Shown here one piece after another: positions 18,026-58,684 of a stretch of 64,000 nt of DNA (its first letter is position 1; every line of letters starts with the position of its first letter). A program made the translations under genes and the position numbers. The stretch spans positions 73,843 to 137,842 of the forward strand of contig CAZUDX010000001.1 in assembly GCA_964618695.1 (NCBI GenBank), read 5' to 3'. A model generated the notes under the pieces. That model worked only from the letters and a program-made list of their open reading frames with translations. It was not told the DNA's origin and did not search any database. This DNA comes from an uncultured Candidatus Bathyarchaeia archaeon (GTDB taxonomy: Archaea; Thermoproteota; Bathyarchaeia; Bathyarchaeales; Bathyarchaeaceae).

Positions 18026-19303
18026 TCACATCCATAAACCAAATCTTGCAATCAAATAAATGCTGGCGAAGCCTAACTGAAGGAAAGATAGTATCACACC
18101 TGTTTTCGTGAATTCGGCGAAACTCAGAGTGAGCCCTTCACGTTTGAGGGCGCCTATGGCCATAATAGCCACGGTACCACTTAATGGAGTAGTGGCGCCT
18201 CCCAGATTACTTCCAAGGACTAGTGCTGACCACACAGCTGCTGAATTTGAACCGTAAATTCCGCGGATCATTGGAACAAAAGTTAGTGCAACTGCCATGT
18301 TACTTACCACTGCACTTGTGATGCCGCTAAACCATAGGATTACTATACTTGCTGCCAAGGGGCTTCCTCCGAAGGTTTGGAATAGTTGCGTTGATATTTC
18401 GGTTAATATTCCAGTGCTTTCTAGACCGCGAACCACGACCATGAAGGCTGCTAGGAAAAACACTGTCTCCCAGTCTAGTTTTCTGAAGATCTCTGTCGGA
18501 TCAAAACTGCTCAGAGCCAAGGCAAGAATGGCGCAACCCAAAGCTACAGCCTCTGGTCCAATACCGAAGTTCTCCAGCGTCAAAAAGAGCACCATTAGAA
18601 GGACGAGGATTAGTATGGAGCGGTAAAAAATTTTCTTGTCTTCTACGCTCTCCCACGGATTATATTCAGGCAGTTCCGTTTTTTCTCCGAGCCTCGACTT
18701 GAAAAGCATATACAAGACGAAGATGCTTAGTGCCCATAAAGCAATTTCACCAAGGGCTAAGAAGCTGAGGAACGCGTTGAAGCTTATTTCCGCTTCAACC
18801 CCAATTATCATATTCGCCACAGAGCCTATCAGAGTGCTTGTTCCCCCCAGATTTATCATCATCATAGCAGAAATGAAGTAAGGCACCGGATCGTAACGTA
18901 ACAGTTTAGTTATCGTCGCCACGGCAGCGGCTATAAGAAGCATCGCCATCGGGTCACTGAGAAACAATGAAACAGTTGCAGCGACTACGCAAATAAGGAC
19001 GAAGAGCCTACCTGGATTTCCTTTAGAGAGTTTAACGGCATATAGGGCTCCGAAATTAAAGAGTCCGCTACGTCTCGCCACCTCCACCACTATCATGACA
19101 CCCAGCAGCAGACCAAGTAGCCGGAAGTCGATGAAGCCGACAGCTTGATCGTATGAGAACACATTGTAGAGTAGACCGAACGCAACTGTTAGCAAAGCTC
19201 CGATCAATGCACCGACTGACATGGGAACGATTTCAGTGGCTGAAAGGAGAATAGTTAACAGATAGATGAGAAGGAAGAGTATTTGTATTTGGTCCATTTT
19301 CAT
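18026..19303 (-). CDS. ArsB/NhaD-superfamily (CitMHS-like) ion permease
   Basis: 425 aa with about 10-12 TM helices. Internally duplicated hairpin-like segments (GGTSTLIGS / GGATTPLSG) are typical of this superfamily. Confidence 0.65.
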   Translation of the reverse strand: MKMDQIQILFLLIYLLTILLSATEIVPMSVGALIGALLTVAFGLLYNVFSYDQAVGFIDFRLLGLLLGVMIVVEVARRSGLFNFGALYAVKLSKGNPGRLFVLICVVAATVSLFLSDPMAMLLIAAAVATITKLLRYDPVPYFISAMMMINLGGTSTLIGSVANMIIGVEAEISFNAFLSFLALGEIALWALSIFVLYMLFKSRLGEKTELPEYNPWESVEDKKIFYRSILILVLLMVLFLTLENFGIGPEAVALGCAILALALSSFDPTEIFRKLDWETVFFLAAFMVVVRGLESTGILTEISTQLFQTFGGSPLAASIVILWFSGITSAVVSNMAVALTFVPMIRGIYGSNSAAVWSALVLGSNLGGATTPLSGTVAIMAIGALKREGLTLSFAEFTKTGVILSFLQLGFASIYLIARFGLWM

Positions 19304-19881
19304 TCACTGTTTTTTCTTCGCTCAGCCATTTTTGCGAGAATGTTTGCTACGGATTCTGCTTTTCGTTCAACTATTCTGTAGAGGATTCGCCCAATATCGT
19401 AGATTAGGACGAGAATTATTCCGAGAGCAACATATATAGTGACTTTTCCTAAGAGGTCACTGACATTAGGCTCCAGAGTTGTTATCAGAGGCTGAAGCGC
19501 GGTAGTCACCAAGATAATAGCGATAATATAAATAGCGTCTCTCACGGCTCTCTTCGGAGACCTTTCTTGTTTAATCCCCAAGCGTTTCACAAAGACGTCT
19601 GTCAGAATGTCACTCAGCACCAACGCATCCGCCAATACCCGTATCACAAAGATTGCTGTGAAGATTAACGCAATAGTTCCTACTAATGTGCCGGCGTTTA
19701 TGTTGATACCTGGAAGCATTATGTCGCCCATCAATGGCGGGACAAAAATGTTCACCAAATAAAAGATAACCGCTATGACCAAGCTCATCGTTAACCGAGG
19801 AAATCTCTGCCGAATCTCGTCACCAACATGTTTCCCCACCAACCGTCTATCCCTCAATAACTTCGCCGTATGTTTTGACAT
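19300..19881 (-). CDS. Four-TM membrane protein, unknown function
   Basis: 193 aa. Its stop overlaps the permease start (ATGA). No motif recognised. Confidence 0.45.
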   Translation of the reverse strand: MSKHTAKLLRDRRLVGKHVGDEIRQRFPRLTMSLVIAVIFYLVNIFVPPLMGDIMLPGININAGTLVGTIALIFTAIFVIRVLADALVLSDILTDVFVKRLGIKQERSPKRAVRDAIYIIAIILVTTALQPLITTLEPNVSDLLGKVTIYVALGIILVLIYDIGRILYRIVERKAESVANILAKMAERRKNSE

Positions 19882-25418: not shown

Positions 25419-25534
25419 TCTCTTTCACCTTTCTCCAGATTAACAGCTTTAATTATAGTTAGAGAATATTAATCTTGCGTGATTTAACAACACGAAAAGA
25501 AAAATGGCGAAGAAAAAACGTTAACGGTTTTTGT

Positions 25535-26410
25535 CTATGAAATTTTTTCGAGAATCTTGTCGGTCTTCACCTTGTGGCTTCGAAGCGCTAGCTCTTTAGG
25601 GTCTACACCCAAGGCTAAGGCTAGAAGTTCTGAATAGTGAAGCACTGGTATGTCGTAGACTTCGTTGAACTTCGATTTCACTTGGATTTGCCCAATGTCC
25701 AAGGCGACAAAACAGAAAGGACAGAGAGTTCCGATGCAGTCAGCACCCGCCTTAGTTGTGTTTACGAGTTTGTCTCTAGCGAGACTAAGGGCAAGATCGT
25801 CATCATAACCCCTCAAAAGACCACCACAACACTTCAACTTGTTTCGATACTCAACGCTCTCCGCACCCAGAGCCTCAATGAGGTTTTCCAACATTTGGGG
25901 GCGCTCTGGATCGTCGAATTCTAGCAGTTCGCTTGGTCTGAGGGAGTGACAACCATAGAAGGGCGCCACTTTCAACTTATTCAAAGGCTTAACTACACTC
26001 TCTTTCAGAGATTCAAGTCCGATGTCATCCATCAAAACCTGAAGGAAATGTTTCACCTCTATAGTGCCCTGAAACTCCTTTCCAGCCTTAGACAGGATTC
26101 CATTTACTTTTTCTCTAAGTTTTTTGTCCTTCTTGAGAGCCGCGTTAGTCATGGCGAGCGACTCAAAACAGCCAGTACACAAAGTAACAATATCTAGACC
26201 TGCTTCTTCAGCTAAACAGATGTTGTAAGCAGCTACAGCCTGACTGGTTTCCAAATCTATAGATTGAATAGGTGGAGGACAACAACAAGTCATGTCGTCC
26301 AAGTCGACGAGCCCAATTCCTAGTTTCGTCAGAGCCTTTCTTGCCGACAATTCATAGTTTGGTTGACGCGCGGGTATGGTACATCCTAGAAACAGAGCAT
26401 AGCTTTTCAT
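25535..26410 (-). CDS. hdrB: Heterodisulfide reductase subunit B
   Basis: 291 aa. Two CCG-domain signatures (CCCPPP..., CCGG...). ATGA overlap with hdrC. Confidence 0.9.
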   Translation of the reverse strand: MKSYALFLGCTIPARQPNYELSARKALTKLGIGLVDLDDMTCCCPPPIQSIDLETSQAVAAYNICLAEEAGLDIVTLCTGCFESLAMTNAALKKDKKLREKVNGILSKAGKEFQGTIEVKHFLQVLMDDIGLESLKESVVKPLNKLKVAPFYGCHSLRPSELLEFDDPERPQMLENLIEALGAESVEYRNKLKCCGGLLRGYDDDLALSLARDKLVNTTKAGADCIGTLCPFCFVALDIGQIQVKSKFNEVYDIPVLHYSELLALALGVDPKELALRSHKVKTDKILEKIS

Positions 26411-26949
26411 TGTGACTCCTCCTTCTGTTGTAGCTTATCAAAACCCGTTGCAGACAGAATTTTGCGCAGCGCGTCTATTCCGGTTGGCTTAAGGGGTGGC
26501 AAACCGTAGGCTATTCTCTTCTTTTCCACGAATTTGGAGACTTGAACTATACGTCCATCGTTCATGAGAGCCGACGCGAACTCTGAGTATATGTTCGGGA
26601 TGTACCCCTCAGCTAATGCAATGTTTCTCAGGGCGTAAATCAAATCGGCTATCTCAACCTTCTGCGGACACCTTTCTTGGCAGTTGAAACATGAACAACA
26701 AAGCCATATAGCATCGCCGGAGACCACCTCTTCCTTCTCGCCTAGGAGAGAAAGCTTGATGACTTCTCTGGGATTGAAGTTGGGGGTGATCTTAGCTACT
26801 GGACAGCTGCTAGCGCACGTCCCACACTGATAACATAAGGTTAAAGTTTCGCCGCCATGACGACTTGTAACCTCATCTGAGAATGGCATCTTGGATTTTT
26901 CCACTTTTTGTGTCATTATACTTCCGCCTCTTTTCATCAGAAAACTCAC
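26407..26949 (-). CDS. hdrC: Heterodisulfide reductase subunit C
   Basis: 180 aa. Two 4Fe-4S motifs, CYQCGTCASSCP and CCSCFNCQERCP. The start is ambiguous: GTG 26949, or ATG 26937/26916. Confidence 0.85.
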   Translation of the reverse strand: MSFLMKRGGSIMTQKVEKSKMPFSDEVTSRHGGETLTLCYQCGTCASSCPVAKITPNFNPREVIKLSLLGEKEEVVSGDAIWLCCSCFNCQERCPQKVEIADLIYALRNIALAEGYIPNIYSEFASALMNDGRIVQVSKFVEKKRIAYGLPPLKPTGIDALRKILSATGFDKLQQKEESQ

Positions 26950-29369
26950 ATTAACTTCAGGGGACCCAGTTTAGTTAGCCGCTCGGTCATCATCTGGGCA
27001 GCCTCTGCAAACTGATCGCCTTCAATGAACACCATGTTGAATAACTCTAACCTTTCAGGCTCTATCCCATATTCTTTCAATAATACCTTGGCGAGATCCA
27101 TCTTCTTCTCAGCTTTCTGAATGCCAACTTCGTAGTGGCAACCGTCGCTCTTGCATCCCACCACCATCACTCCTTGGGCACCAGCCTTGAATGCCTCTAG
27201 AATCTGGTGAACTTGAAGTATTCCGGTGCATGGAACCTTCATAACCCTCACGTTGGCGGGATACTGCATTTTAGCCATCCCCGAGGAATCTACAGCTGTG
27301 TGACCACATTCTTGGCAGCAGATAGCTAATACCAGAGGCTTCGATGTTCCGTTCACCGACATAAGGGCTTTCATTTGGGCTAACATCTGGTTTGGTCTTG
27401 AGTGCCTAAGTTCGATGGCGTTCAGAGGACAGGTTCCCACGCAGATGCCACATCCCTCGCATATTATGTCATTAACACGAGCAACGAAGTGATCTTCGGT
27501 TGTGGGTTCTAAACTTATGGCGCCGTAGGGACAGGTGACGGGACAGAATTCACAATCACCACAGTAGTCCTCGTTGATTATTGCTGTTCTTTGATCCTTG
27601 ACAATTTTGCCGTTGGTCAAGAACTTTGCAGCCTTTATAGCTGCCGAATGAGCATGCAGAGAAGATGTCGGTGCATCCTTTGGAAAGGTTGTTCCTCCGC
27701 AGAGGTATACTCCCCTAAGCTTTGTTTCTGTTGGTCTAAGTTTGGCGTTGTATTCCTTGAAGAAACCGTCTGCGTCCAAATCAATACCCAGAATCTCGGC
27801 AAGCTCCTCGGTTCCTTCAGCTGGCACCATGGCAGGAGCCAAGACAACTAGGTCAGCTTCAAGGTCTAAGAATCTTTTGAGAAGGGCGTCCTCAACATCT
27901 ACGAATAATTTGCCTGTTTCCGTGTCCTTCCAGATTTCGGTGGGTCTCCCCTTAACGAACTTTATGCCCATCTCTCTGGCTCTTTCATAGTAGTACTCGT
28001 GTTCCCTTCCTGTGGTCCTTATGTCGATATAACAGATGGAAACATCTGCGTCAGGATTTGCAGATTTAATCAACGAGGCGTGCTTTAGGGAGATCATGCA
28101 ACAGATGCTTGAACACCAAGGATTATATCTCCTGTCTCGCGAACCAGCACATTGAATAAAAACGATTTTCTTAGCGGGCTTGCCGTCTGAAGGTTTAACA
28201 ATCACTCCGCCTGTGGGACCGAAACCGTCAATCATCCTAGCCAGTTCAAGATTGGTTATAACGTCAGGATAATCGTCATAATGGTATTCCTTTATGGCGC
28301 TGGAATCAAATTCTCGGAAGCCCGTGGCGACAACTATGCTCCCCACATTGAGAGTTATCTGCTCAGGTTTCTGATCCAGTTCAATGGCGTTTGTTGGACA
28401 AACTTCAACGCATTTGGCGCAATCATGGAACTTGCAGGCGCTTTCGTCAATGACGTAGACTGGCGGATGAACGTTGGGTACGTTCATGTAGATGGCTTTA
28501 CGGGTCTTCAGCTTTGCATTGTATTCATCAGGTACTTCCACTGGACAAACGGTGGTGCATTTGTCACATAGCACACAATTATCGTTAACGTATCGCGGTT
28601 TCTTCTCTATCGTAACCTTATAGTTTCCAGGAACTCCCTCAACACCAATAACCCTAGCGTTAGTTAAGATGTTCAAGTTTGGAATCTCGCTGAAACCAGA
28701 ACGATACACACACTTTCTGGATGTGTGGGTGATGGTCTTCAAGTCAGAGGACGGAGATTGGATACAAATTGCGCAGTCGTCAGTTGGGAAGAAACGACCA
28801 GCGCGGGCAGCCAAGCCACCGAGAAATGGTGTCTTCTCAACCAAGTTCACTTCGAAACCCAAATCCGCCAAGTCCCCAGCCGCCTGCATACCAGCGATTC
28901 CTCCACCTATAATCAAGGCGGATTTGAGGACTGGAAACTCGAGTTTTTCGACAGGTTCAAGAAGCTTGGCGCGTTCGATGGCTGATAGAAGCATGGCTTT
29001 AGCCTTTTCAGTGGCTTCCTTGGGGGTTTCCCGGTGGGGCCATGCGCAGTGGTCTTTTAGGTCGATTACTTCTACCAAGTAGGAATTGAGACCTGCTTTC
29101 TCAACCGCTTGTGCTATTTTTACTTCGCTTAGTTTAGGAAGGCTCTCAGCGACAACTACTCGATTTATTTTTCCGCTTTTAACGGCATCTAGAATGGTCT
29201 TTAATCCGTTGCCACGCCAGAACTCGCTGCCTCTGCCTATTAATACTACGTTTGAGACAGTTTTCACGAAGCTTGTTAGAGCGTTGAAGTCTAAGATTTC
29301 AGAGAGTTGATTGCCACAGTCAGATAGAAATACTCCGACTTTAGGTTGTTCCATTTTCCATTCGCTCAT
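26946..29369 (-). CDS. hdrA: Heterodisulfide reductase subunit A fused to a C-terminal MvhD domain
   Basis: 807 aa. FAD fold IIGGGIAGMQAA, FPTDDCAICI, several ferredoxin CxxCxxCxxxCP motifs, and a C-terminal MvhD-like LAICCQECG...PCTG...VVGCKSDGCHY. Confidence 0.9.
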   Translation of the reverse strand: MSEWKMEQPKVGVFLSDCGNQLSEILDFNALTSFVKTVSNVVLIGRGSEFWRGNGLKTILDAVKSGKINRVVVAESLPKLSEVKIAQAVEKAGLNSYLVEVIDLKDHCAWPHRETPKEATEKAKAMLLSAIERAKLLEPVEKLEFPVLKSALIIGGGIAGMQAAGDLADLGFEVNLVEKTPFLGGLAARAGRFFPTDDCAICIQSPSSDLKTITHTSRKCVYRSGFSEIPNLNILTNARVIGVEGVPGNYKVTIEKKPRYVNDNCVLCDKCTTVCPVEVPDEYNAKLKTRKAIYMNVPNVHPPVYVIDESACKFHDCAKCVEVCPTNAIELDQKPEQITLNVGSIVVATGFREFDSSAIKEYHYDDYPDVITNLELARMIDGFGPTGGVIVKPSDGKPAKKIVFIQCAGSRDRRYNPWCSSICCMISLKHASLIKSANPDADVSICYIDIRTTGREHEYYYERAREMGIKFVKGRPTEIWKDTETGKLFVDVEDALLKRFLDLEADLVVLAPAMVPAEGTEELAEILGIDLDADGFFKEYNAKLRPTETKLRGVYLCGGTTFPKDAPTSSLHAHSAAIKAAKFLTNGKIVKDQRTAIINEDYCGDCEFCPVTCPYGAISLEPTTEDHFVARVNDIICEGCGICVGTCPLNAIELRHSRPNQMLAQMKALMSVNGTSKPLVLAICCQECGHTAVDSSGMAKMQYPANVRVMKVPCTGILQVHQILEAFKAGAQGVMVVGCKSDGCHYEVGIQKAEKKMDLAKVLLKEYGIEPERLELFNMVFIEGDQFAEAAQMMTERLTKLGPLKLM

Positions 29370-30820
29370 CTTCTCAGTGTCTTTACTAATTGCTTGTCGC
29401 TGTCGAAGATGTTAACCTCTAAGGGCATCTCGCCTATTGCAAAGTGGGTGGCGCAGGCGAAGCATGGATCGTAAGCTCTGAAGGCCATCTCTACCTTGTT
29501 CAACAGACCATCGCTGACCTCACCGTTCTGTATAAGACCTTGCGCGGCGTTCTTTACGGACATGCAGATACTGGGAGCATTATGAGTTGTAGCCACTATT
29601 AAGTTGACTTTCTTCGCCAAAGCATTCTCATCTAACTGGTAATGGTGAATAAGAGTGCCTCTTGCAGCTTCAACTATCCCAACACCTTCGCCAGGCTTTC
29701 CAGGTTTGTTTCTAATGTTTTTGCTTGTAATGTCCTTGTCCGTAATCAGTTCTAATCCTCTTTCGGTTGCGTACATAAGTTCAATCAGCCTAGCCCAATG
29801 GAACGCTAAAGTAGCGTGAACTGGTTTTCCGCCAAGAGTTTTGTACATTCTCTCGTATTCTGCTTGGGCAACTGGTGTTGTCATTCCATCAGCGGCGTTA
29901 AGTCTTCCCAGTGGACCGACTCGGTATAGACTGGTTTCTGGTCCGCTAGTGAGACCTTTCCAACCAATTTTCTTCAAGTAAGGAAGTTTAACGTAAGTCC
30001 ACGGTTCAACATGCTCTTCTATAATGTCCAAATATTCTGTGGGACCAAATTTGACGAATTCTTTGCCCTGCGTATCGACTACACGGACTTTGCCGTCATA
30101 GAAGTTAACCTTGTTGTTCTTGTCTACGGTTCCCATGTAGTAGGTTTCCAAGTTGTAGGGGTCGCTTGTGATCAAGTTCACGTAGTCAGCATTTTTCAGG
30201 ACAATATCATCAAAGAGTTTCAGAGAGAACTTGGCAAACTCGTGACAACTTTTAAGCATATCTTCGATCTCTTGCCGTTCTTCCTCGTTTATTGCCTTTG
30301 CCATACCGCCTGGAAGAGCGCTTACCGGATGGGTTGGTCTTCCACCAAGAATTCCAGTGATCCTTTGTCCAAAAGCACGATGTTTTATGACTTCTCCAGC
30401 GACTTCCAAACCGGCTTTTTCTATTACTCCAAGAATGTTACGTTTAGCAGCGGGAGCGTCAGGTCCTACAACAAAGTCTGGACCGCCCAAGAAGTAGAAG
30501 TGCAGTATGTGGTCATAAATGAAATAACCGCAATACTCTATTTCTCTCAGTTTTTTCGCCGTTTCTGTCGGTTCAACATTCATTGCCATATCTGCAGCTT
30601 TTGCCCCTGCCATATGATGGGCAACTGGGCAGACTCCACAGATTCTGGTTGTTATTATGGGTAGGTCTTCAACCCTTCTTCCTTCGCAGAACCGTTCAAA
30701 GCCCCGCAGTTCGGGAACTTGGAAGTAAGCATTTTCAACGTTTCCAGCGTCATTTAGGAATATGGTTATTTTTCCGTGACCTTCCAGCCGTGTTATTGGA
30801 TCTATCACTATTTCTTTCAT
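29366..30820 (-). CDS. mvhA: [NiFe] hydrogenase large subunit, Mvh (group 3c)-type
   Basis: 484 aa. Has RLEGHG, the N-terminal Ni-Fe ligand motif RICGVCPVAH, the C-terminal DPCFACATH, and a cleavable extension. Confidence 0.9.
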   Translation of the reverse strand: MKEIVIDPITRLEGHGKITIFLNDAGNVENAYFQVPELRGFERFCEGRRVEDLPIITTRICGVCPVAHHMAGAKAADMAMNVEPTETAKKLREIEYCGYFIYDHILHFYFLGGPDFVVGPDAPAAKRNILGVIEKAGLEVAGEVIKHRAFGQRITGILGGRPTHPVSALPGGMAKAINEEERQEIEDMLKSCHEFAKFSLKLFDDIVLKNADYVNLITSDPYNLETYYMGTVDKNNKVNFYDGKVRVVDTQGKEFVKFGPTEYLDIIEEHVEPWTYVKLPYLKKIGWKGLTSGPETSLYRVGPLGRLNAADGMTTPVAQAEYERMYKTLGGKPVHATLAFHWARLIELMYATERGLELITDKDITSKNIRNKPGKPGEGVGIVEAARGTLIHHYQLDENALAKKVNLIVATTHNAPSICMSVKNAAQGLIQNGEVSDGLLNKVEMAFRAYDPCFACATHFAIGEMPLEVNIFDSDKQLVKTLRR

Positions 30821-31779
30821 TTCTTCACCTTCCTTCGGAGGATAGAGTGAGCTAACGAATACTTGTAGAAGGTTCCTATCGGATCCACAATGTCCTTAAC
30901 AACATCCGGATTTGTAGCAATGGAAGCAAGGGCACTAATAGCCGCAGCACCCTGATCGGTCACCCTAGGACCTGGACCGTTGCAGCCAGTGCATGGAATA
31001 TTAACTTTTGGGCATTGGGCGCCGCAACCTGCTCGGGTGGCTGGACCCATACAAATCACGCATTGGTCCAAGAAACATGTTTCTCCGTCATCATCAATCT
31101 CGTAGATTCTTTTTATCTGAGAGAGTTGTTTGTCCTTCTTCTCCCTTGGACACTCATCGCAGATGGATTTGTTTGGCAAGAAACTTGAACCCTTCGGAGG
31201 CAGATTGCCGGTTATAAATGCCATAAACATGTTGAGAATCGCCGGAATCGGCGGTGGACAACCAGAAATAGTGTAATCGACATCCACAGTTTGGGGTAGG
31301 GTTTTTACAGTGTCATAGAATTCTGGAAGTTCAAGCTCTCCTTCTTTGACTTTCAGATGTGTTTTAGGGGTCACATATTCTGGGTTTTGGGTCGATTGAG
31401 TCTCAGAATATGCTCTCTCGAAGATGGTTTTCCTGTCCCAAAGATTTGCGAGACCTTTGACACATCCGTCGTTGGCGCATGAGCCGAAGGCCACAAGTAT
31501 CTTTGATTTTTGTCTCAGGAGTTTTGCCATCTTCTCATTTTCTTCAGTTCTTATTGCGCCGTTGAAGAAGCAGGCGTCTATACTTTTGTCTGGCATAGCT
31601 TTGACATCTTTATATTTTATGTCCATGGCCACAGGCCAGAAGACGATGTCAGCAGCAGCAACGACGTCTAAGATTTTCTCGTTTACATCAAGAACAGCTA
31701 CTTCGCAGCCTCCACAACTAGCCGCCCAATAAAAAGCGATCTTAAGTTTCTCCTTTCCCACAGGAATCACCGTTTGCAA
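30817..31779 (-). CDS. mvhG: [NiFe] hydrogenase small subunit, Mvh-type
   Basis: 320 aa. SCGGCEV proximal-cluster motif and further Cys clusters (GSCA, CDEC, CxxCxGP...CTGC). The start may be GTG 31770 (leaderless) rather than TTG 31779. Confidence 0.85.
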   Translation of the reverse strand: MQTVIPVGKEKLKIAFYWAASCGGCEVAVLDVNEKILDVVAAADIVFWPVAMDIKYKDVKAMPDKSIDACFFNGAIRTEENEKMAKLLRQKSKILVAFGSCANDGCVKGLANLWDRKTIFERAYSETQSTQNPEYVTPKTHLKVKEGELELPEFYDTVKTLPQTVDVDYTISGCPPPIPAILNMFMAFITGNLPPKGSSFLPNKSICDECPREKKDKQLSQIKRIYEIDDDGETCFLDQCVICMGPATRAGCGAQCPKVNIPCTGCNGPGPRVTDQGAAAISALASIATNPDVVKDIVDPIGTFYKYSLAHSILRRKVKK

Positions 31780-31800: not shown

Positions 31801-31916
31801 GAGCAAATAAAGCTTTCCTTTCATCACAAAAAAATGATTTATACCCCTGAAATATTTGGAAAAAGGTGCCTAGCCACTTGGGCTAGGAAAGTAAATAATG
31901 ATTTTATTATCAGAAT

Positions 31917-33269
31917 TTAACGAAGTTTCCTTATCACCATTTCTGCAGCTAAAACCATCGGCTCCCACGTTTCGCAAACTGGAGGGGCATAGCATGTCTC
32001 GGCTTTCGCTAGTTCTTTGACAGTCATTTGGTTTTGTATAGCAAAGGACAGAGCGTTTACGCGCTGTGTTACTTCTTCTCCACCAATTATTTGAGCCCCA
32101 ACGAGTTTTCCTGTCTCCTTTTCTGCGACAAGCTTGATTCTGATTGGTAAGGCTCCTGGGAAGTAATCAGCCCTTGTTTTTGATTGTATTGTTCCTGCCA
32201 CAACTTCTATTCCTGCTCGACCAGCCATGAACTCTGTTAGTCCTGTGCCGCCGATTTCAGTGTCAAACAATCTTGTAATCCAAGAACCTAAGGCTCCTGA
32301 AAACGTGGTGTATCCGCCAGCAGCGTTGGTCCCCGCTACCTTTGCCTGTTTCACAGCAGTGGTTCCAAGCTGGCTCATTGTGGGTCTACACGTAACTAGG
32401 TTTATTGTTTCAGCGCAGTCTCCAGCTGCATAAATTCCTTTGATGTTAGTTTCCATTTTAGAGTTAGTTTTTATGCCCTTCTTTTCTCCCAGAGCTACGC
32501 CAGCGTTTTTTGCCAGTTCAGTATTTGCTCTTACCCCAGTGGCTACCACAACCACATCTGCCGAAATCTCTTCTCCAGCAACAAGAACTCCATTAACTTT
32601 GTCAGTTCCAAGGATTTCCTCTGCTCCTTTTCCAACAATAATTCTCATGCCTTTCTCTTCAAGCATCTTCTGAACGCGATCAGCCATATCCTTGTCCAGC
32701 AAGACAGGGAGAACATATGGAAGGAATTCAACGACTGTGGTTTTCAGTCCTCGTTCAAGGCAAGCTACGGCAACTTCAAGACCAATGAGTCCAGCGCCTA
32801 CAATGACGGCTGACTTTGCTGTCTCAAGGGCTTGGTTGATTTTTTCTCCGTCTTTAATGGTTCGGACAACGTACACGCCCTTCTTTTCTCGTCCCTTTAT
32901 CGGGGGCACAAAAGGAGCTGCGCCGGTGGTTATGACTAAACTGTCATACGGAAGAGTTTCTTTCTTTCCAGTTTTGTCTTGTATCTCGACAGTTTTTGCT
33001 TTAGTATCAATGTTTGTTACTGTTGTTTCAGTTTTCAGGTTTAGTTTCATCATTTTGTAGAATCTTTCAGGGAAGACCACTAGATCATCGAAGGTGGGTA
33101 TGTGTCCGCCCAAAACGAAGGGGAGACCGCAGCGGGAGTATGCTGTTTTGGCCTCTTTGGTTATTAGGGTGATTTCGGCGGTTCTATCGGTTTTTCGGGC
33201 AGCAGATGCCGCGTCAACACCTGCGGCGTGTGCTCCAATAATTATAATTTTTCGGGTCATTTTTATCAC
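31917..33269 (-). CDS. FAD-dependent pyridine nucleotide-disulfide oxidoreductase, NADH oxidase / CoA-disulfide reductase family
   Basis: 450 aa. GxHAAG FAD fold, a single redox Cys in YSRCGLP, a second dinucleotide fold VGAGLIGLE, and AAGDCA. Confidence 0.8.
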   Translation of the reverse strand: MIKMTRKIIIIGAHAAGVDAASAARKTDRTAEITLITKEAKTAYSRCGLPFVLGGHIPTFDDLVVFPERFYKMMKLNLKTETTVTNIDTKAKTVEIQDKTGKKETLPYDSLVITTGAAPFVPPIKGREKKGVYVVRTIKDGEKINQALETAKSAVIVGAGLIGLEVAVACLERGLKTTVVEFLPYVLPVLLDKDMADRVQKMLEEKGMRIIVGKGAEEILGTDKVNGVLVAGEEISADVVVVATGVRANTELAKNAGVALGEKKGIKTNSKMETNIKGIYAAGDCAETINLVTCRPTMSQLGTTAVKQAKVAGTNAAGGYTTFSGALGSWITRLFDTEIGGTGLTEFMAGRAGIEVVAGTIQSKTRADYFPGALPIRIKLVAEKETGKLVGAQIIGGEEVTQRVNALSFAIQNQMTVKELAKAETCYAPPVCETWEPMVLAAEMVIRKLR

Positions 33270-33365: not shown

Positions 33366-33560
33366 TTAGCTTTGTTCTTTTACAAGTGAGTAAAGGCGAC
33401 TCTTGTTATCGCAGTCGATTGTGCCTTCACTGAAGAGTTTCCGTAAAGCTTTGAAGATTGCTTTCTCTGATTTTCCGATTTTTTCCGCGATTTCAACTAG
33501 ACTGAGAGCTTTTCCTGAGGTTTCTAACAGTGAGATTATTTGTTTATGGATTTTGCCCAT
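33366..33560 (-). CDS. Small winged-helix DNA-binding protein
   Basis: 64 aa. LSLVEIAEKIGKSEKAIFKALRKL HTH-like segment. Confidence 0.45.
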   Translation of the reverse strand: MGKIHKQIISLLETSGKALSLVEIAEKIGKSEKAIFKALRKLFSEGTIDCDNKSRLYSLVKEQS

Positions 33561-33709: not shown

Positions 33710-34126
33710 TTAACCTTCTTTTGCGACTTTTTTATGCCATTCTACAGCTGCTTCGAAGTTCATGATTGCTTTCAAGTCTGCATCTAGATTTGATGGGGCT
33801 ACGGTTACTACCCATCCCTCGCCATAGGGGTCTTCGTTTAACAGTTCAGGTTTGGACTCAAGCTCTTCGTTCACCGATTCAATTGTACCGCTTACAGGGG
33901 CAACGAGGTCTGAGACTGCTTTCACGGATTCTAAGGTTCCGAAAGGCTCGTTTTGAGTTATAGTGTCACCGACACCAGGAAGTTCAACAAAGACGATGTC
34001 ATGGAGTTGTTTTTGGGCGTAGTCAGAGATGCCGATTCTAACTTTTCCGTTTTCTACTTTTGCCCACAGGTATTCCTTGTGGTAATATAGACCTTCTGGT
34101 ACTTCGTAGTCTTCTACTTTGACCAT
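33710..34126 (-). CDS. gcvH: Glycine cleavage system H protein / lipoyl-carrier protein
   Basis: 138 aa. Canonical lipoyl-lysine motif LESVKAVSDLVAPVSG. Confidence 0.9.
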   Translation of the reverse strand: MVKVEDYEVPEGLYYHKEYLWAKVENGKVRIGISDYAQKQLHDIVFVELPGVGDTITQNEPFGTLESVKAVSDLVAPVSGTIESVNEELESKPELLNEDPYGEGWVVTVAPSNLDADLKAIMNFEAAVEWHKKVAKEG

Positions 34127-37836: not shown

Positions 37837-38877
37837 ATGTCGGCAGTAAATGATAACATATTTGAGGGTACATTTGCTAGTGAGTTTGGATATCAGATGA
37901 AAGTTGAGGAAATTTGGCGCGTTTCTGGAGAAGAATTGGCTTCAATGATTGAAAAGGGACTTTTCCGAAACAATCAGAGAAGAATTCGGTTTTACGCTCC
38001 AAGTTTCATGAACTACAAAACCAGCTACTATTGCTCATCTAAAACTTTTTTTCCATCGATTTCAATCACAGGGTCTTCATGTGCTCTGAAATGCAAACAT
38101 TGCGACGGAAAGGTTCTCAACACTATGTATCCAGTTTCTACTCCAAACGAACTTTTTGAGTTATGCAAGAAATTGAAGGCTAAAGGAGCAGTGGGATGTC
38201 TCATAAGTGGAGGGTGCCTTCCTGATGGTTCTGTTCCCCTTGACAATTTCGTAGACGCCATAGCCAAAGTGAAAAAAGAGTTGGGATTAACCATTGCAAC
38301 CCATACTGGAGTCATAGAGTTGTCCACTGCGAAGAGGCTGAAGGAGGCAGGTGTTGACGCTGCGCTACTTGACATAATTGGTTCCAATCAAACCATACAA
38401 GAGATATACCGACTGAAAATCACTGTTGAAGACTACGATAGGTCTTTGAAGGCTTTGCACAAATCAGGTATTCCTTTCGTTCCTCACTTGCTTGTTGGGC
38501 TTCACTATGGCGAACTGAAGGGTGAACTTCAAGCCCTAAAGATTATTTCTAATCACTCACCCTCAGCGATTATTTTGATAGCTTTCATGCCGATTCATGG
38601 AACACCCATGGAAAAAGTTGTCCCCCCAAGTCCCGAAGACATTGCCAAAGTGCTGGTTACAACTAAACTGCTGATGCCCAATACGCCTGTTGCCTTAGGA
38701 TGCATGAGACCGAAGGGAAAACACAGAACAAAAACAGATACTTTGGCTGTGAAAGCTGGAGTCAACGCCATCGCCTTTCCAGACGAAGAAGCAATAAAGC
38801 TAGCAGAATCGTTAGGTCTAGAGATTTCGTTTTCGCCCATCTGCTGCTCCCAAATCTTCAAAGACCTAATATCATGA
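37837..38877 (+). CDS. Radical SAM protein, biotin-synthase-homolog type; candidate lipoyl synthase component LipS2
   Basis: 346 aa. CALKCKHC (CX3CX2C) preceded by FPSISITG, then GGC.PDG. The pattern matches my memory of the COG1856-type LipS2 family; not verified. Confidence 0.55.
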   Translation: MSAVNDNIFEGTFASEFGYQMKVEEIWRVSGEELASMIEKGLFRNNQRRIRFYAPSFMNYKTSYYCSSKTFFPSISITGSSCALKCKHCDGKVLNTMYPVSTPNELFELCKKLKAKGAVGCLISGGCLPDGSVPLDNFVDAIAKVKKELGLTIATHTGVIELSTAKRLKEAGVDAALLDIIGSNQTIQEIYRLKITVEDYDRSLKALHKSGIPFVPHLLVGLHYGELKGELQALKIISNHSPSAIILIAFMPIHGTPMEKVVPPSPEDIAKVLVTTKLLMPNTPVALGCMRPKGKHRTKTDTLAVKAGVNAIAFPDEEAIKLAESLGLEISFSPICCSQIFKDLIS

Positions 38878-39399: not shown

Positions 39400-40182
39400 A
39401 TGTCAGTGAACGTGGACGCAGAGTCCATCAACCTTAAGGCTCGAACTCGAAAGAAAGTAAAAGAGACAGTTGCTATTGAGGAGCCGTCAAACATCTATTT
39501 GAATGGTGAATATTTGGTCACTCTTTTGTCAACTCCAACAATGAGAAAGGAACTCGCCATTGGTTGGCTCTTAAGCGAAGGCATTATTCACTCTTTCTCG
39601 GAAATAGAAAACATCACAGTTTCAGAAAGTGAAATAGAAGTCGACATAAACCGTTCTTTTGACAGAAAAGATTTGAACATTTTTGGCGTAACCAGACTCT
39701 ACACAACCGCTTGCGGATTATCCACTGCAAAATTCAACCAAGTGATATCCACCAAAGAAACCCAGATGATACAGTCTGATTACCAAGTTAAAGCAAGCCA
39801 ACTCCTGCAAATGATGGAGGAACTGGAAAATAGAGCCGTTTTTTTCCAGACAACTGGAGGAACACATGTGTCAGCCCTGTTTCACAAAGGCAGACTTGTG
39901 GCGTTAGCTGAGGATGTTGGACGTCATAATAGTGTTGATAAAGTGATTGGAAGTGGGGCTCGGTCTGGAATAGAATTTTCTGAGTGTGTTCTCGCTAGTT
40001 CAGGTAGACAACCCGCAGACATGGTGTTGAAAGCTGCAAGAACAGGCATTCCGATAATTGTGTCAAAAGCCGCTCCGATACGTTCAGGGATAATAGCCGC
40101 AGAAAATTGGGGCGTGACGCTTGTCTGTTTTGCCAGAAAAAACAGGATGAACGTGTATACCCATTCCTTTAGAATACAGTAA
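39400..40182 (+). CDS. fdhD: FdhD-family sulfurtransferase-like protein
   Basis: 260 aa. Motifs TTGGTHVSAL and EDVGRHNSVDKVIG. The Cys loop reads TTACGLS, i.e. a single Cys. Confidence 0.85.
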   Translation: MSVNVDAESINLKARTRKKVKETVAIEEPSNIYLNGEYLVTLLSTPTMRKELAIGWLLSEGIIHSFSEIENITVSESEIEVDINRSFDRKDLNIFGVTRLYTTACGLSTAKFNQVISTKETQMIQSDYQVKASQLLQMMEELENRAVFFQTTGGTHVSALFHKGRLVALAEDVGRHNSVDKVIGSGARSGIEFSECVLASSGRQPADMVLKAARTGIPIIVSKAAPIRSGIIAAENWGVTLVCFARKNRMNVYTHSFRIQ

Positions 40183-40214: not shown

Positions 40215-41234
40215 GTGAATGATGTGGGCAAAAATTCCGTTAATGAATTGCCAGACCGTATCCGAGTTTCAATGGGCTCGGCTACTGTGCTTGGGTTGTT
40301 GCGAGGTAGGTTAGATGCCAAACCCACAACCGTTTACCTACTCACTTGTCGAACCGAAAAGTGTTCCGCCAACTGTGGTTTTTGTCCCCAAGCCAGAGAG
40401 AGCAAAGGCAGAGCAGACATGCTGTCCAGAGTGACATGGCCTATCTTCCCGACAAAACAGGTTGTTGATGGAATAGAGAAAGCTGAAAAAACGGGAGATA
40501 TAAAGCGGGTTTGCATCCAGACACTGAACTACCCAGAGGTTTTCAACGATGTTTTGCTTCTGGTTAAAGAAATAAAGTCCCGAGCCCAAGTTCCGGTATC
40601 CGTCTCTTGTCAACCCGCAAGCCCAGAGAGATTGAAGGCTTTGTCAGAGGCTGGTGTTAACCGCATAAGTGTTGCTTTGGATGCTGCCACAGAAGAAATA
40701 TTTGACAAGGTTAAGGGAAGAATCATCGGCGGACCTTACAGATGGGAGAAACAGCATGAGGCTCTAAAGGATGCTGTCAGCGTCCTCGGAGAAGACTCGG
40801 TGAGTACACATCTTATTGTAGGTTTAGGGGAGACAGAGAAGGAGCTTTGTCGAACGATTCAATGGTGTGTTGATTCAGGAGTCTATCCGGGATTGTTCGC
40901 CTTTACACCGATATCGGGAACTGCTCTTGAAAACAACCCTCCGCCATCCCTAAGCCAATATCGAAGAGTTCAAGTTGCCCACTACCTCTTAACCCACAGA
41001 AAAACACGACTGGAAAACATGGAATTTGATGAAGGTGGACGTGTCACCAACTTTGGAATATCTAAGAAACAGTTACGGGAAGTCGTTGAAACTGGCGAAC
41101 CTTTTCTCACTTCCGGATGTTCAGGATGCAACCGACCATACTACAACGAAAGACCCGGCGGTCCAATCTATAACTGTCCTAGGCAACCGAGGTCCGAGGA
41201 AATTGCTGAAGCAAAAAAAATGTTAGAAATCTAG
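40215..41234 (+). CDS. Radical SAM protein, biotin-synthase-related; candidate lipoyl synthase component LipS1
   Basis: 339 aa with a GTG start. CSANCGFC (CX3CX2C), LSRVTWP and IVGLGETE motifs. Matches my memory of the COG2516-type LipS1 family; not verified. Confidence 0.55.
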   Translation: MNDVGKNSVNELPDRIRVSMGSATVLGLLRGRLDAKPTTVYLLTCRTEKCSANCGFCPQARESKGRADMLSRVTWPIFPTKQVVDGIEKAEKTGDIKRVCIQTLNYPEVFNDVLLLVKEIKSRAQVPVSVSCQPASPERLKALSEAGVNRISVALDAATEEIFDKVKGRIIGGPYRWEKQHEALKDAVSVLGEDSVSTHLIVGLGETEKELCRTIQWCVDSGVYPGLFAFTPISGTALENNPPPSLSQYRRVQVAHYLLTHRKTRLENMEFDEGGRVTNFGISKKQLREVVETGEPFLTSGCSGCNRPYYNERPGGPIYNCPRQPRSEEIAEAKKMLEI

Positions 41235-46615: not shown

Positions 46616-47413
46616 TTAGATGGCTGCTTTGCCGGGGAGAGTCCAATCCTCGGTCACAAATCTCTCTTTTCTTAATTTTTTAGCCAGTTTCTGTTCGTAT
46701 TCTGTGAGTTCTTCTTCCACTAGCTGCACGTTTAGCACTTTCTCGAATCCTTTAACTAATGCGTGGTAAGCTTCGTCTGTTGTAAACTGGGACTCAAGCT
46801 CTTGTCTGGCAGAGGTCAATTTTCTCTTAGAGACTTCCAGCACATCGTTGAGTGTTTTTGCCCATGGAACCTTAAGGAAGGTGAACATTTTTTCGTGGTC
46901 TATATCCAGTAGGAATGTTCCGTGCTGTAGCAAGACGCCTTTTTTTACGGATTGAGCGTTTCCAGAGATTTTTTTTCCACCTATAGTGAGGTTGGGACAT
47001 CGTTTCGGGTCTGGGGGCTGGAACTCGGCTTTGGCTCCAAGGATTTTAACCGCTTCGTTGAGTCCACTGCATATTTTTTGGTATGCAGGAAGCATGTTTA
47101 AGGCCCCGCAACCCAAGTCGGCTGTTTTTGCAACTACACAATAGGTTATTTCGCCCTCCGAGTCGTGATATACAGCCCCGCCACCTGAGATTCTTCTCAC
47201 GATGTCTACGCCATGTTTCCTGCAGTTTTGCACGTGAACCTCGTTGTTGAGGTTTTGGAAGCGTCCTATGGAGACGGCTGAAGGCTTCCACATATAGAAA
47301 CGTAGGGTGTTAGGCACTTTACCTTCGATTCTGGCTCTCATGATTGCTTCGTCGACAGCCATGTTTGCGAAAGCGTCCCTAACTTCGAGTTTAAGAAGCC
47401 TCCAAACGCCCAT
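46616..47413 (-). CDS. lplA: Lipoate-protein ligase A / octanoyltransferase catalytic domain protein
   Basis: 265 aa. Motifs [12 protein letters not shown] and the [10 protein letters not shown] catalytic Lys motif. There is no C-terminal accessory domain. Confidence 0.85.
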
Positions 47414-52672: not shown

Positions 52673-52720
52673 ATGTGTTTTCCTCAATTAGTCAATACGG
52701 TTTTTATATGTGGAATTTTT

Positions 52721-55811: not shown

Positions 55812-55862
55812 CTTTTTTTCTCTCCTCAATTTTTTGAGGCGGTTCTAAGTAATGTCCATTTG

Positions 55863-57238: not shown

Positions 57239-58684
57239 TCAGAATAATGTTTTAACCTGCTTTACGATGCCTTGGGAAGCCATGTAACGGTAGAGTTTTC
57301 TTTTCAGTGCTTTCCTTGAGAAGATTCCACCGAGTCTTCTGCTCCAAGAACCGAAGAAGCTTCTGTAGCAATTGTACAGTTCCTCTTGCACTTCTTTTGT
57401 GGACAGAGTTTCCGTGGGCATGATTGCGTGAACCATGTCATAGTTTGCCCAATTCCAGTCTTCTATCCACCCGTTCCGTTTAGCTTCCTCATACACGGCT
57501 GTTCCAGGAAATGGAGTGAGAATCGCAAAAATCGCCAAGCCAGGGTCCAAGTCATTTGCGAACTCCCTCAGGTTCGCTATAGATTGTGCAGTGTCTTTCC
57601 GTTCTCCGATGATGAACATGGCTTGGGCAAAGATGTCATTCTCTTTCAATAGCTTCACTGCTTTTTTTGCCTCTTCAGGGGTTGTCTCTTTTTTGAATGA
57701 TTCTAGGGTAGATGAACTGTGGCTCTCCACTCCCAATAGCACCCAGCGGAGTCCAGCCTTTCGCATCTTAGGCAAAACATCAGGATTTTTCACCACATCA
57801 TCACATCTAACCTGCATAAACCACATAATATCCTCTGAGAAACCACGCTGAATAAGTTCATCAGCTAGACTGCTTGCACGCTTGCCTAATCCATAGTTGT
57901 CGTCCGTGAGCCAGAGGAATTTGCTGCCATAATTTTCGTAACAGAATTCAAACTCGTCTGCAATTCGTTTCGGCGATTTGATTCGCCACTTCCCCTGCCA
58001 GTGCCTCCATTGAGTACAAAAGACACAACGGTGAGGACAACCTCTAGACCCTTCAACTAATGCATATCTGGTTTTGGAACCTGCCATGGCAGTGAAGTGA
58101 TATTTCTGAACCAGATTCTCAACATATTTGTATCCGGGAAAAGGTAGGTTGTCAAGGTTTTGGATCAGAGGTCTCGGAGGGTTGTGTCTGATTCTTCTCC
58201 TTTTTCTAAATGATATTCCATCCACAGATGAAAACGGCATTCTGTCAGCTGATCTTTGCACCAGTTCTACAAGAGTCTCTTCTCCTTCTCCCCGAACAAT
58301 TACGTCTATCTCGGGATATGCCTCTAAACTCTCTTGAGCCATAACAGTGAAGTGTTGTCCCCCAGCAACAGTTAAGATGTCTGGGTTCACTTTTTTTGCA
58401 ATCTCCAAGGTTCTGGCGGCAGCGTAGGTGTTGCAGGTGGCAAGAGCGCTTGAAGCCACCACATCTGGGTTAAATGATGCTAGGCGTTTTTCTAATCCTT
58501 TCCAGTCTAGTTCCTCTGCGTTGCAATCTAAAACTTGGATTTCTGCGTTCTTGTTTCTTTGTTCGAGATAAGCGGCTAGTTGAAGAATTCCGTATGGGGG
58601 TGGCAAATATTCTCCCATTACAAACCAGTAGTCCTTTGGAGGCTCCACAAAGAGAATTTTCAGCTGTAACCACCGTCTAAACAA
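57239..58684 (-). CDS. B12-binding-domain radical SAM protein (class B type)
   Basis: 481 aa. N-terminal cobalamin-binding-like domain (KILFVEPP...VVASSA...TVAGGQH), then CPHRCVFC (CX3CX2C). The start codon is uncertain (TTG). Confidence 0.8.
   Translation of the reverse strand: MFRRWLQLKILFVEPPKDYWFVMGEYLPPPYGILQLAAYLEQRNKNAEIQVLDCNAEELDWKGLEKRLASFNPDVVASSALATCNTYAAARTLEIAKKVNPDILTVAGGQHFTVMAQESLEAYPEIDVIVRGEGEETLVELVQRSADRMPFSSVDGISFRKRRRIRHNPPRPLIQNLDNLPFPGYKYVENLVQKYHFTAMAGSKTRYALVEGSRGCPHRCVFCTQWRHWQGKWRIKSPKRIADEFEFCYENYGSKFLWLTDDNYGLGKRASSLADELIQRGFSEDIMWFMQVRCDDVVKNPDVLPKMRKAGLRWVLLGVESHSSSTLESFKKETTPEEAKKAVKLLKENDIFAQAMFIIGERKDTAQSIANLREFANDLDPGLAIFAILTPFPGTAVYEEAKRNGWIEDWNWANYDMVHAIMPTETLSTKEVQEELYNCYRSFFGSWSRRLGGIFSRKALKRKLYRYMASQGIVKQVKTLF

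Follow-up and report, generated by a model that had tools for sequence, protein, structure and literature searches.

A predicted Mvh-type hydrogenase–heterodisulfide reductase complex in a non-methanogenic Bathyarchaeum, with a disulfide substrate that is likely not CoM-S-S-CoB

The closest described relatives of the system analyzed here are the MvhAGD-HdrABC complexes of methanogens, in which an Mvh-type [NiFe]-hydrogenase is joined to a heterodisulfide reductase (Hdr). Structures are available for M. thermolithotrophicus (Protein Data Bank (PDB) 5ODC), M. marburgensis (8RVU and 9SW2) and M. maripaludis (9SFI). No hydrogenase is encoded together with the HdrA2B2C2 enzyme of M. acetivorans, which reduces the heterodisulfide of coenzymes M and B (CoM-S-S-CoB) with ferredoxin or F420H2. 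Yan et al. (2017) defined HdrA::MvhD fusions for this enzyme, with homologues also in non-methanogens, and such fusions have been classified as 'type Ia' HdrA. Mvh and Hdr have been reported repeatedly in Bathyarchaeia that lack mcr (Bathy-6-A, CR_14, and metagenome-assembled genomes (MAGs) from Polar Fox Lagoon and Lake Towuti), where the role was called unclear or no identity was given for the heterodisulfide, and a fused 'MvhD/hdrA' is listed for a complete genome from Bathy-6. The present analysis concerns the five-gene operon mvhG-mvhA-hdrA(mvhD)-hdrC-hdrB, located within a 64,000-nucleotide stretch of contig CAZUDX010000001.1 from an uncultured Candidatus Bathyarchaeia archaeon. The whole of this stretch is termed the window, and all coordinates refer to it unless a locus of another genome is named.

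The operon is read here as a single transcription unit of a non-methanogenic Bathyarchaeum that encodes a soluble Mvh-type hydrogenase together with an Hdr module, the disulfide substrate of which is likely to be other than CoM-S-S-CoB. We place the probability of this reading at about 0.55. As an entry in the catalogue the operon adds nothing new, both Mvh-Hdr in Bathyarchaeia lacking mcr and the fusions having been published. The earlier mcr-less sets share with the window a group 3c hydrogenase with HdrABC annotation, and they raise the same question of the disulfide; the original prediction had called the physiological disulfide of such complexes in non-methanogens unresolved, and the literature on Bathyarchaeia says the same. 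The features of start codons, ligands and loops described below, and the presence/absence polymorphism of hdrACB, are undiscussed in those annotation-level reports. The class-wide altered pocket of HdrB, the missing shuttle ligands and E356 of HdrA and the repeated loss of hdrACB could direct experiments, and the operon touches on the wider question of the hydrogen, ferredoxin and thiol redox balance of the Bathyarchaeia. These rank among the most abundant archaea of anoxic sediments.

The comparison set comprised 80 loci obtained from a scan with MvhA, one genome per species, all of them from Bathyarchaeia. The MvhA of the window is 93% identical to those of Ca. Bathyarchaeum sp. bin115 and of an uncultured Bathyarchaeia MAG, and 90% identical to that of Ca. 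Bathyarchaeum tardum M17C-01, which has a complete genome. On these identities the organism belongs to the Bathyarchaeia, genus Ca. Bathyarchaeum. The loci are labelled so that L001 is the closest relative by MvhA, L002 is the chromosome of bin115 and L007 is B. tardum. The comparative counts given below are based upon 61 full-length hdrA sequences, 59 HdrB sequences and, for the mvhG/mvhA junction, 66 loci. B. tardum is the cultivated representative of Bathy-8, with the archaeal Wood–Ljungdahl pathway and lacking McrA; neither Hdr nor Mvh is mentioned in the main text or supplement of the paper describing it.

The operon lies on the minus strand. Taking the first ATG, GTG or TTG after the upstream stop as the start of each open reading frame (ORF), it comprises five consecutive ORFs at 31779..30817, 30820..29366, 29369..26946, 26949..26407 and 26410..25535. 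The gene content proposed in the original prediction is borne out by these ORFs together with Pfam, NCBIfam and PDB matches, and MvhD is indeed fused to the C-terminus of HdrA, since the FlpD domain lies inside the hdrA ORF. No second mvhD, hdrA, hdrB or hdrC was found across the 64-kb window. By alignment the operon encodes full-length homologues of all the subunits of methanogen MvhAGD-HdrABC, the six modules each aligning over their entire length with the solved complexes.

The small subunit of the hydrogenase is encoded by mvhG (30817..31761, start revised to GTG 31761; Pfam Oxidored_q6), and is of the Mvh/Vhu type. It aligns over its full length with PDB 5odc_E (219.8 bits) and also with 9sw2_E, and 12 of 12 cysteines of the three Fe-S clusters are aligned; the NCBIfam VhuG score is 220.9 bits (cut-off 450). 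The large subunit is encoded by mvhA (29366..30820; Pfam NiFeSe_Hases), the ATG of which overlaps the mvhG stop. Its 484 amino acids include RICGVCPVAHH as L1 motif and DPCFACATH as L2 motif, matching the patterns RxCGxCxxxH and DPCxxCxxH. VhuA is the best NCBIfam match (408.4 bits; cut-off 800), and published Bathyarchaeota homologues have been typed as group 3c. In full-length alignments the large subunit is as similar to HydL of the electron-bifurcating NiFe-HydABCSL enzyme of Acetomicrobium mobile (7t2r_D, 398.7 bits) as it is to MvhA (5odc_F, 389.5 bits). The small subunit, in contrast, is of the Mvh type, with 219.8 bits to MvhG versus 83.8 to HydS, and the partner subunits are of the Hdr type and not the NuoEF-like HydABC.

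The hdrA::mvhD fusion (26946..29354, start revised from the mechanical 29369 to ATG 29354) is one uninterrupted ORF in which amino acids 6–670 correspond to HdrA and 676–806 to MvhD, i.e. a type Ia HdrA with the same architecture as the M. acetivorans protein. The HdrA part matches PDB 5odc_A with 552.9 bits over amino acids 6–669. The best NCBIfam match of the ORF is HdrA2, with 768.9 bits over amino acids 10–804 (cut-off 1100), while HdrA gives 593.7 bits (cut-off 1400). The MvhD domain, expected to hold a [2Fe-2S] cluster, is located at 26964..27332 (amino acids 680–802 of 807), where the match to FlpD covers profile positions 1–123 of 123 (130.6 bits, E = 4e-38); PDB MvhD/VhuD chains give 84–105 bits and NCBIfam VhuD 136.8 bits (cut-off 215). 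The fusion is present in all 61 full-length Bathyarchaeia hdrA, each retaining the MvhD cysteines.

The gene hdrC (26407..26916, with ATG 26916 (MTQK...) as the probable start in place of the mechanical GTG 26949) encodes the subunit with two [4Fe-4S] clusters, and both CxxCxxCxxxCP motifs are kept, as CYQCGTCASSCP and CCSCFNCQERCP. It scores 116.6 bits with TIGR03290 (cut-off 160) and 113.6 bits with PDB 8rvu_c. The catalytic disulfide-reductase subunit is encoded by hdrB (25535..26410; Pfam CCG twice), the ATG of which overlaps the hdrC stop. It scores 343.6 bits with TIGR03288 (cut-off 345.15) and 288.7 bits with 8rvu_b. Thus every curated NCBIfam equivalog cut-off is missed, i.e. those of VhuG, VhuA, HdrA, HdrA2, VhuD, HdrC and HdrB.

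Like MvhAGD-HdrABC, the window complex has ligands for the NiFe site, the three MvhG clusters, the [2Fe-2S] cluster of MvhD, FAD together with K409 and the C386-type cluster, for both ferredoxin domains of HdrA, for two clusters in HdrC and for two non-cubane clusters in HdrB. The L1 and L2 motifs and the cluster cysteines of MvhG and HdrC are, like those of HdrB, conserved in 59–61 Bathyarchaeia sequences. The window complex differs from the methanogen complex in that MvhD is fused, C11, C46 and C71 of HdrA are absent, E356 is alanine, HdrA has an insert of 15 amino acids and the loops of HdrB are shortened. In addition there is no mvhB polyferredoxin, no fwd/fmd nearby, and the host lineage is without Mcr. 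In M. acetivorans, HdrA2 has retained E356 and all four cysteines of the N-terminal domain, and HdrB2 has methanogen-type loops, while the window proteins do not.

The boundaries of the operon are marked on both sides. Upstream, following the cdr-like gene described below, there is a hairpin CCTAGCC-N5-GGCTAGG followed by a T-run (31869..31887, minus strand). It is a terminator-like match that forms in the computed fold and is conserved in the loci of the genus. This match is the only result used from a sigma-70 scan, which returned seven sites versus 8.2 expected, its consensus being bacterial and uninformative for an archaeon. A putative archaeal promoter element is located at 31805..31820 on the minus strand, ∼45 nt upstream of the mvhG start, comprising a purine-rich stretch resembling a B recognition element (BRE) and a TATA-like CTTTATTT; the position of the BRE/TATA-like sequence aaagCTTTATTT (31816..31805) is conserved among the genus Bathyarchaeum loci. 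On the 3′ side of hdrB there is a T-rich stretch (25490..25534, minus strand, including cgttttttcttcgccatttttcttttcg) that is conserved in outline in relatives and is probably an archaeal terminator, and beyond it gap has a TATA-like element of its own (ATTAATAT). Apart from one tRNA an Rfam scan of the window returned nothing. With a promoter-like element of its own and flanking terminator-like elements, the five genes therefore probably form a separate transcription unit.

The gene order mvhG-mvhA-hdrA(mvhD)-hdrC-hdrB and the fusion are found in about 60 other Bathyarchaeia loci, i.e. most of the 80. The ratio of non-synonymous to synonymous substitution rates (dN/dS), calculated pairwise against nine relatives, is 0.03–0.14 for each of the five, a range shared with the adjoining gap and pgk. 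All five are under strong purifying selection, and therefore the operon of the window is functional. The idea that it might be a decaying relic was rejected, the ORFs being intact and dN/dS low.

The evidence for a substrate other than CoM-S-S-CoB comes from HdrB. The 10 cysteine ligands of the two non-cubane clusters, within the two CCG motifs, are all kept in the HdrB of the window and throughout the 59 Bathyarchaeia sequences. In the methanogen enzyme the backbone amides of Gly46 and Gly198 hold the sulfonate of CoM, and Arg14 and Arg201 bind CoB. The loops containing the two glycines have the sequences CCPAPG(V/A)F(G/K)S and CCGAGGGVR in six of six characterized CoM-S-S-CoB reductases (five solved structures and HdrB2 of M. 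acetivorans). They are replaced in all 59 Bathyarchaeia HdrB by CC(A/C)PPP(L/I/V)QS and CC--GGLL(R/K), which are shorter and from which the glycines are gone. In the window the two loops lie at 26261..26287 and 25811..25834. Among the 150 best cluster representatives in the HdrB family, only 6 carry the long CCGAGGGVR-type loop, as counted from an exhaustive HMMER search without taxon labels that was used only for this purpose; a word-indexed search for homologues gave only close HdrB of the Bathyarchaeia type, with at least 78% identity. The pocket of HdrB has thus probably been reshaped for another disulfide, and from its sequence the substrate is most likely not CoM-S-S-CoB. The loops were compared between Bathyarchaeia and the six characterized reductases, and the change may be an effect of lineage. 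Arg240, which is isoleucine in the window, was rejected as a marker of CoB binding, as it is valine in M. marburgensis.

In the proposed mechanism H2 would be split at the NiFe site of MvhA, and the electrons would travel to the FAD of HdrA by way of MvhG, with its three clusters, and the [2Fe-2S] cluster of the fused MvhD domain. A high-potential branch would lead from HdrA through HdrC to HdrB and the disulfide. The second branch would probably run via the ferredoxin-like domains of HdrA to ferredoxin, so that the reaction would be a flavin-based bifurcation feeding the Wood–Ljungdahl pathway. The whole reaction may also run in reverse, with H2 as the outlet for reductant. What the sequences show is the gene content, the fusion of domains, the ligands of the cofactors, conservation, purifying selection and the limits of the operon; which way the electrons flow, whether they bifurcate and what the substrate is are inferred.

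Several observations weigh against this mechanism in its full form. HdrA of the window keeps its FAD-binding region, and K409, the cluster ligands C386/C399/C403/C404, the C194/C197 pair and the 16 cysteines of the two ferredoxin domains, inserted and C-terminal, are invariant across the 61 Bathyarchaeia sequences. The N-terminal domain is different. Here C11, C13, C46 and C71 (M. thermolithotrophicus numbering) are invariant in HdrA of M. thermolithotrophicus and M. thermautotrophicus and in the fused HdrA2 of M. acetivorans. Only C13 is kept in Bathyarchaeia HdrA, where the others are changed to C11S, C46W and C71S/T, so that the ligand set of the N-terminal [4Fe-4S] shuttle is incomplete throughout the class. 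Recent cryo-EM papers describe this cluster, carried on a mobile domain, as taking the low-potential electron towards ferredoxin. With three of the four cysteines gone, bifurcation appears doubtful. Equally, E356, which is glutamate in the three methanogen HdrA including HdrA2, is alanine in the window HdrA, as it is in all 61 Bathyarchaeia sequences. The combination of E356 with K409 has been proposed as a marker of bifurcating HdrA, and the absence of E356 as a mark of non-bifurcating proteins; Bathyarchaeia HdrA retains K409 alone of the two, which again leaves bifurcation in doubt. Canonical bifurcation is therefore not assured, because both the shuttle-cluster ligands and E356 are missing, and a low-potential branch would have to differ from that of the methanogen enzyme, the N-terminal shuttle cluster being without its ligands.

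The best-surviving alternative is accordingly a non-bifurcating H2:disulfide oxidoreductase, in which all the electrons would pass through FAD, HdrC and HdrB, and the ferredoxin-like domains would serve only as wires to MvhD or as an alternative point of entry for reduced ferredoxin. The loss of the shuttle ligands and of E356 speaks for it, and HdrA2B2C2 of M. acetivorans provides a precedent in carrying out plain ferredoxin-dependent heterodisulfide reduction. However, K409 and both ferredoxin domains are kept, among them the inserted domain through which electrons leave to ferredoxin in methanogens, and 21.7% of HdrA from methane-metabolizing archaea likewise lack E356. Bathyarchaeia HdrA has moreover acquired cysteines of its own. 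An insert of 15 amino acids (the SDLKTITHTSRKCVYRSG region, 28704..28757 on the minus strand, amino acids 205–222), absent from methanogen HdrA, follows directly after the C194/C197 pair (also given as C199/C202), and its cysteine, C220, is found in 60 of 61 Bathyarchaeia sequences. Cys446 and Cys557 are likewise specific to the class, and together with C220 they could form a replacement site. On balance a plain H2:disulfide or ferredoxin:disulfide oxidoreductase seems unlikely, though it is a serious rival to the bifurcating complex.

A second alternative is that this is a canonical CoM-S-S-CoB reductase, operating as in hydrogenotrophic methanogens, in a host that makes CoM and CoB for an undetected Mcr or Acr or for some other use. 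The original prediction had identified the operon as the electron-bifurcating enzyme of methanogens. The full-length homology of the subunits supports that identification in part, and the top-scoring solved relatives are all methanogen enzymes, but the missed cut-offs and the missing shuttle ligands, E356 and HdrB loops do not. A CoM/CoB-like substrate is possible, because Arg14 and Arg201 are kept and the CoB-CoM HdrB equivalog cut-off is missed by only 1.5 bits (343.6 versus 345.15), and this counts against the reading preferred here; in addition mcr is carried by some Bathyarchaeota (BA1 and BA2). On the other side, both pocket loops of the six characterized reductases are absent from every one of the Bathyarchaeia HdrB. 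As predicted, the ORFs of 150 amino acids or more in the 64-kb window include no mcr, CoM/CoB or methanogenesis genes. McrA is absent from the cultured B. tardum and from many Bathyarchaeia MAGs, and the relatives of this lineage that have been cultured or have complete genomes are without it. The hdr module is also dispensable in sister lineages, as described below. A canonical function is thus improbable. The altered pocket of HdrB, the shuttle ligands and E356 missing from HdrA and the repeated loss of hdrACB argue against depicting the enzyme in maps of metabolism as a bifurcating complex dependent on CoM-S-S-CoB.

The order of genes at the syntenic locus is gcvH-cdr-mvhG-mvhA-[hdrA-hdrC-hdrB]-gap-pgk, and the bracketed genes are subject to loss. 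In four genomes hdrACB is cleanly absent between mvhA and gap (L002 11452–11616, L007 11455–11631, L010 11455–11611 and L011 11455–11826). In a fifth (L047, 11452–14422) hdrA and hdrC contain six frameshifts, compared with none in 7.25 kb of neighbouring genes, which would have a probability of ∼6e-4 if frameshifts were uniformly distributed. The affected regions are syntenic with 29366..25535 of the window. The sequences at the junctions are not the same, pointing to three or more independent losses of hdrACB. In these lineages mvhG and mvhA are intact and remain under strong purifying selection (dN/dS 0.04–0.07). Deletion or decay has thus affected hdrACB in at least five sister genomes in which mvhGA is still under selection. 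The hydrogenase is therefore not strictly dependent on this Hdr module, a further point against the preferred assignment. Judged from these loci, members of the genus can dispense with the Hdr module, their hydrogenase having a different partner or another Hdr elsewhere. Genes lost together with hdrACB may reveal the real substrate, providing a handle for phylogenetic profiling.

A third alternative places the disulfide next door, bound to a protein or cofactor encoded by the adjacent genes. The candidates would be the lipoyl group of GcvH, or a coenzyme A (CoA)-type disulfide or persulfide processed by a flavoprotein resembling CoA-disulfide reductase (CoADR) and NADH oxidase (Nox). A lipoylatable gcvH with an ESVKA motif (34126..33710, minus strand) is located 1.9 kb upstream of the operon, and cdr (33269..31917, minus strand), encoding a single-cysteine (SRCGLP) CoADR/Nox-like flavoprotein with A. 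fulgidus NoxA-3 as its best PDB match, directly precedes the operon on the same strand. Between them is an ORF of 64 amino acids (33560..33366, minus strand) resembling a winged helix-turn-helix, a putative DNA-binding protein. Across the loci, a lipoylatable gcvH is paired with cdr beside mvh-hdr in three arrangements, and the pairs involved are of two paralogous kinds. In L001, L014 and L018 an extra, divergent hdrC′-hdrB′ comes after a paralogous pair. Genes for LipS1, LipS2 and LplA lie within 16 kb.

The precedent for such a link is the sulfur-oxidizing sHdr-LbpA system (HdrC1B1AHC2B2 with the lipoate-binding LbpA, LplA and LipS1/S2), since sHdr systems depend on LbpA, which resembles GcvH, and those of archaea are associated with a dihydrolipoamide dehydrogenase. 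The window resembles it in having an Hdr-type CCG enzyme near a lipoylatable GcvH, a pyridine-nucleotide disulfide oxidoreductase, LipS1, LipS2 and LplA. It differs in having one hdrC and one hdrB after hdrA, in the presence of a hydrogenase, and in an HdrB that is nearest to the CoB-CoM type. Moreover, no member of the dsrE/tusA sulfur-transferase families was found among the window ORFs scanned, so the sHdr gene set is incomplete, GcvH scores as bona fide, and the lipoylation genes are dispersed and belong to a general archaeal route. With an E0′ of –0.29 V, lipoamide would permit a near-reversible bifurcation with H2.

One specific form of this idea would be a distinct class of H2-linked Hdr, and not a displaced methanogen enzyme, with an HdrB for a disulfide other than that of CoM and CoB, and an HdrA that would pass on the low-potential electron with no N-terminal shuttle cluster. 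Lipoyl-GcvH would be the best local candidate, recycled to NAD(P) by the CoADR/Nox-like flavoprotein. Were it true, H2, ferredoxin and the lipoyl-protein pool would be linked in an H2-dependent counterpart of sHdr-LbpA. However, gcvH and cdr are separate transcription units, with a terminator-like hairpin and their own promoter, and both are retained where hdrACB has been deleted (L002, L007, L010 and L011). In L012 and L013 gcvH is missing. GcvH scores above the cut-off of the bona fide GcvH equivalog (137.2 versus 115.85), and the 'gcvH' that lies downstream of hdrB in hot-spring lineages is without the lipoyl lysine. Both the general proposal of a substrate encoded next door and its lipoyl-based form are thus very improbable.

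The lipoylation genes of the window comprise LipS1 (37837..38877, plus strand) and LipS2 (40215..41234, plus strand), the two subunits of a radical-SAM lipoyl synthase, both of which score above their NCBIfam equivalog cut-offs. The gene for the sulfurtransferase FdhD (39400..40182, plus strand) is located between them, and the large subunit of LplA (47413..46616, minus strand) is 5 kb further along. They were considered as sHdr-like maturation genes, and rejected as such because LipS1/S2 with Lpl is the general archaeal lipoylation pathway. The 'gcvH' 3′ of hdrB in hot-spring Bathyarchaeia was likewise rejected as support for a lipoyl link, having no lipoyl lysine and an N-terminus resembling a ribbon-helix-helix (RHH).

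Some loci of the comparison set have additional genes around the operon. Upstream of mvhG in L001 (282–3650) there is a paralogous cdr′ (52%) with a lipoylatable gcvH′ (40%), and the same is found in L014, L018 and L029. The divergent second hdrC′-hdrB′ pair of L001 has an ATGA overlap of its own and another type of HdrB loop (CCGFPIKS / CCGGVIL). About 22 loci, hot-spring and others (among them L033, L042, L046 and L048–L053), have a second hdrA::mvhD, 37% identical, and a fusion of ADP-forming acetyl-CoA synthetase with GNAT upstream, as in L050 (3678–8924 and 17674–20876). Downstream, the same loci have three genes whose products are an RHH-GcvH-like protein in which the lipoyl lysine is missing, an Fe-S flavoprotein resembling GltD/NfnB and a 255-amino acid protein with an MvhD domain.

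The junctions between the five genes had been predicted to overlap by 4 nt throughout. This holds for the mechanically called ORFs, and on comparison of related loci for two of the four junctions. At mvhG/mvhA the ATGA at 30817..30820 is kept in about 60 of the 66 loci, with the Shine–Dalgarno-like GGAAGGTGA upstream, and at hdrC/hdrB the ATGA at 26407..26410 is kept in nearly all loci, with GGAGGAG upstream. At mvhA/hdrA (29366..29369) the overlapping ATG 29369 is absent from most loci, and the close relatives L001, L012, L015 and L080 have an in-frame stop after the equivalent ATG and before the next one. The conserved start of hdrA is ATG 29354, 15 nt later, from which MEQPKVGV... aligns with residue 1 of the crystallized HdrA, leaving a spacer of 11 nt between the genes. 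At hdrA/hdrC (26946..26949) the overlapping GTG 26949 is not conserved. In L003 and L004 hdrC starts at MTQK, corresponding to ATG 26916 in the window, 33 nt later, and in distant loci it starts 15–23 nt past the hdrA stop, behind an AGGAGG-like motif. Thus hdrA and hdrC most likely start later than the mechanical calls, behind short spacers, and because of this comparison of start codons two of the four overlaps are regarded as artefacts of ORF calling. The start of mvhG is likewise taken as GTG 31761, where relatives have ATG and GGTGA lies 5 nt upstream, in preference to TTG 31779. Nor are the overlaps unusual in themselves, because ATGA is the commonest type of overlap in prokaryotic operons, and a further overlap of 4 nt occurs at 19300..19303, between a 193-amino acid ORF without a family match (19881..19300) and an ArsB/MamN-like permease (19303..18026).

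The neighbours of the operon are glycolytic and redox genes, as originally proposed, and encode GAPDH, PGK, the CoADR/Nox-like flavoprotein, GcvH, phosphofructokinase and aldolase. The window also encodes SMC/ScpAB, TFB, a histidine kinase with a response regulator, NifS, malic enzyme, SerB, ion transporters, an H+-pyrophosphatase, pyrroloquinoline quinone (PQQ)-repeat proteins and B12-radical-SAM proteins, in addition to FdhD, LipS1, LipS2 and LplA. PQQ-domain proteins akin to those of the window have been proposed to act on lignin in Bathy-6. Two of the window proteins are large PQQ/beta-propeller-repeat proteins of 822 and 910 amino acids, encoded at 52687..50219 and 55829..53097, one of which has a PT-rich tail, and a gene for a B12-binding radical-SAM protein (58684..57239) adjoins them.

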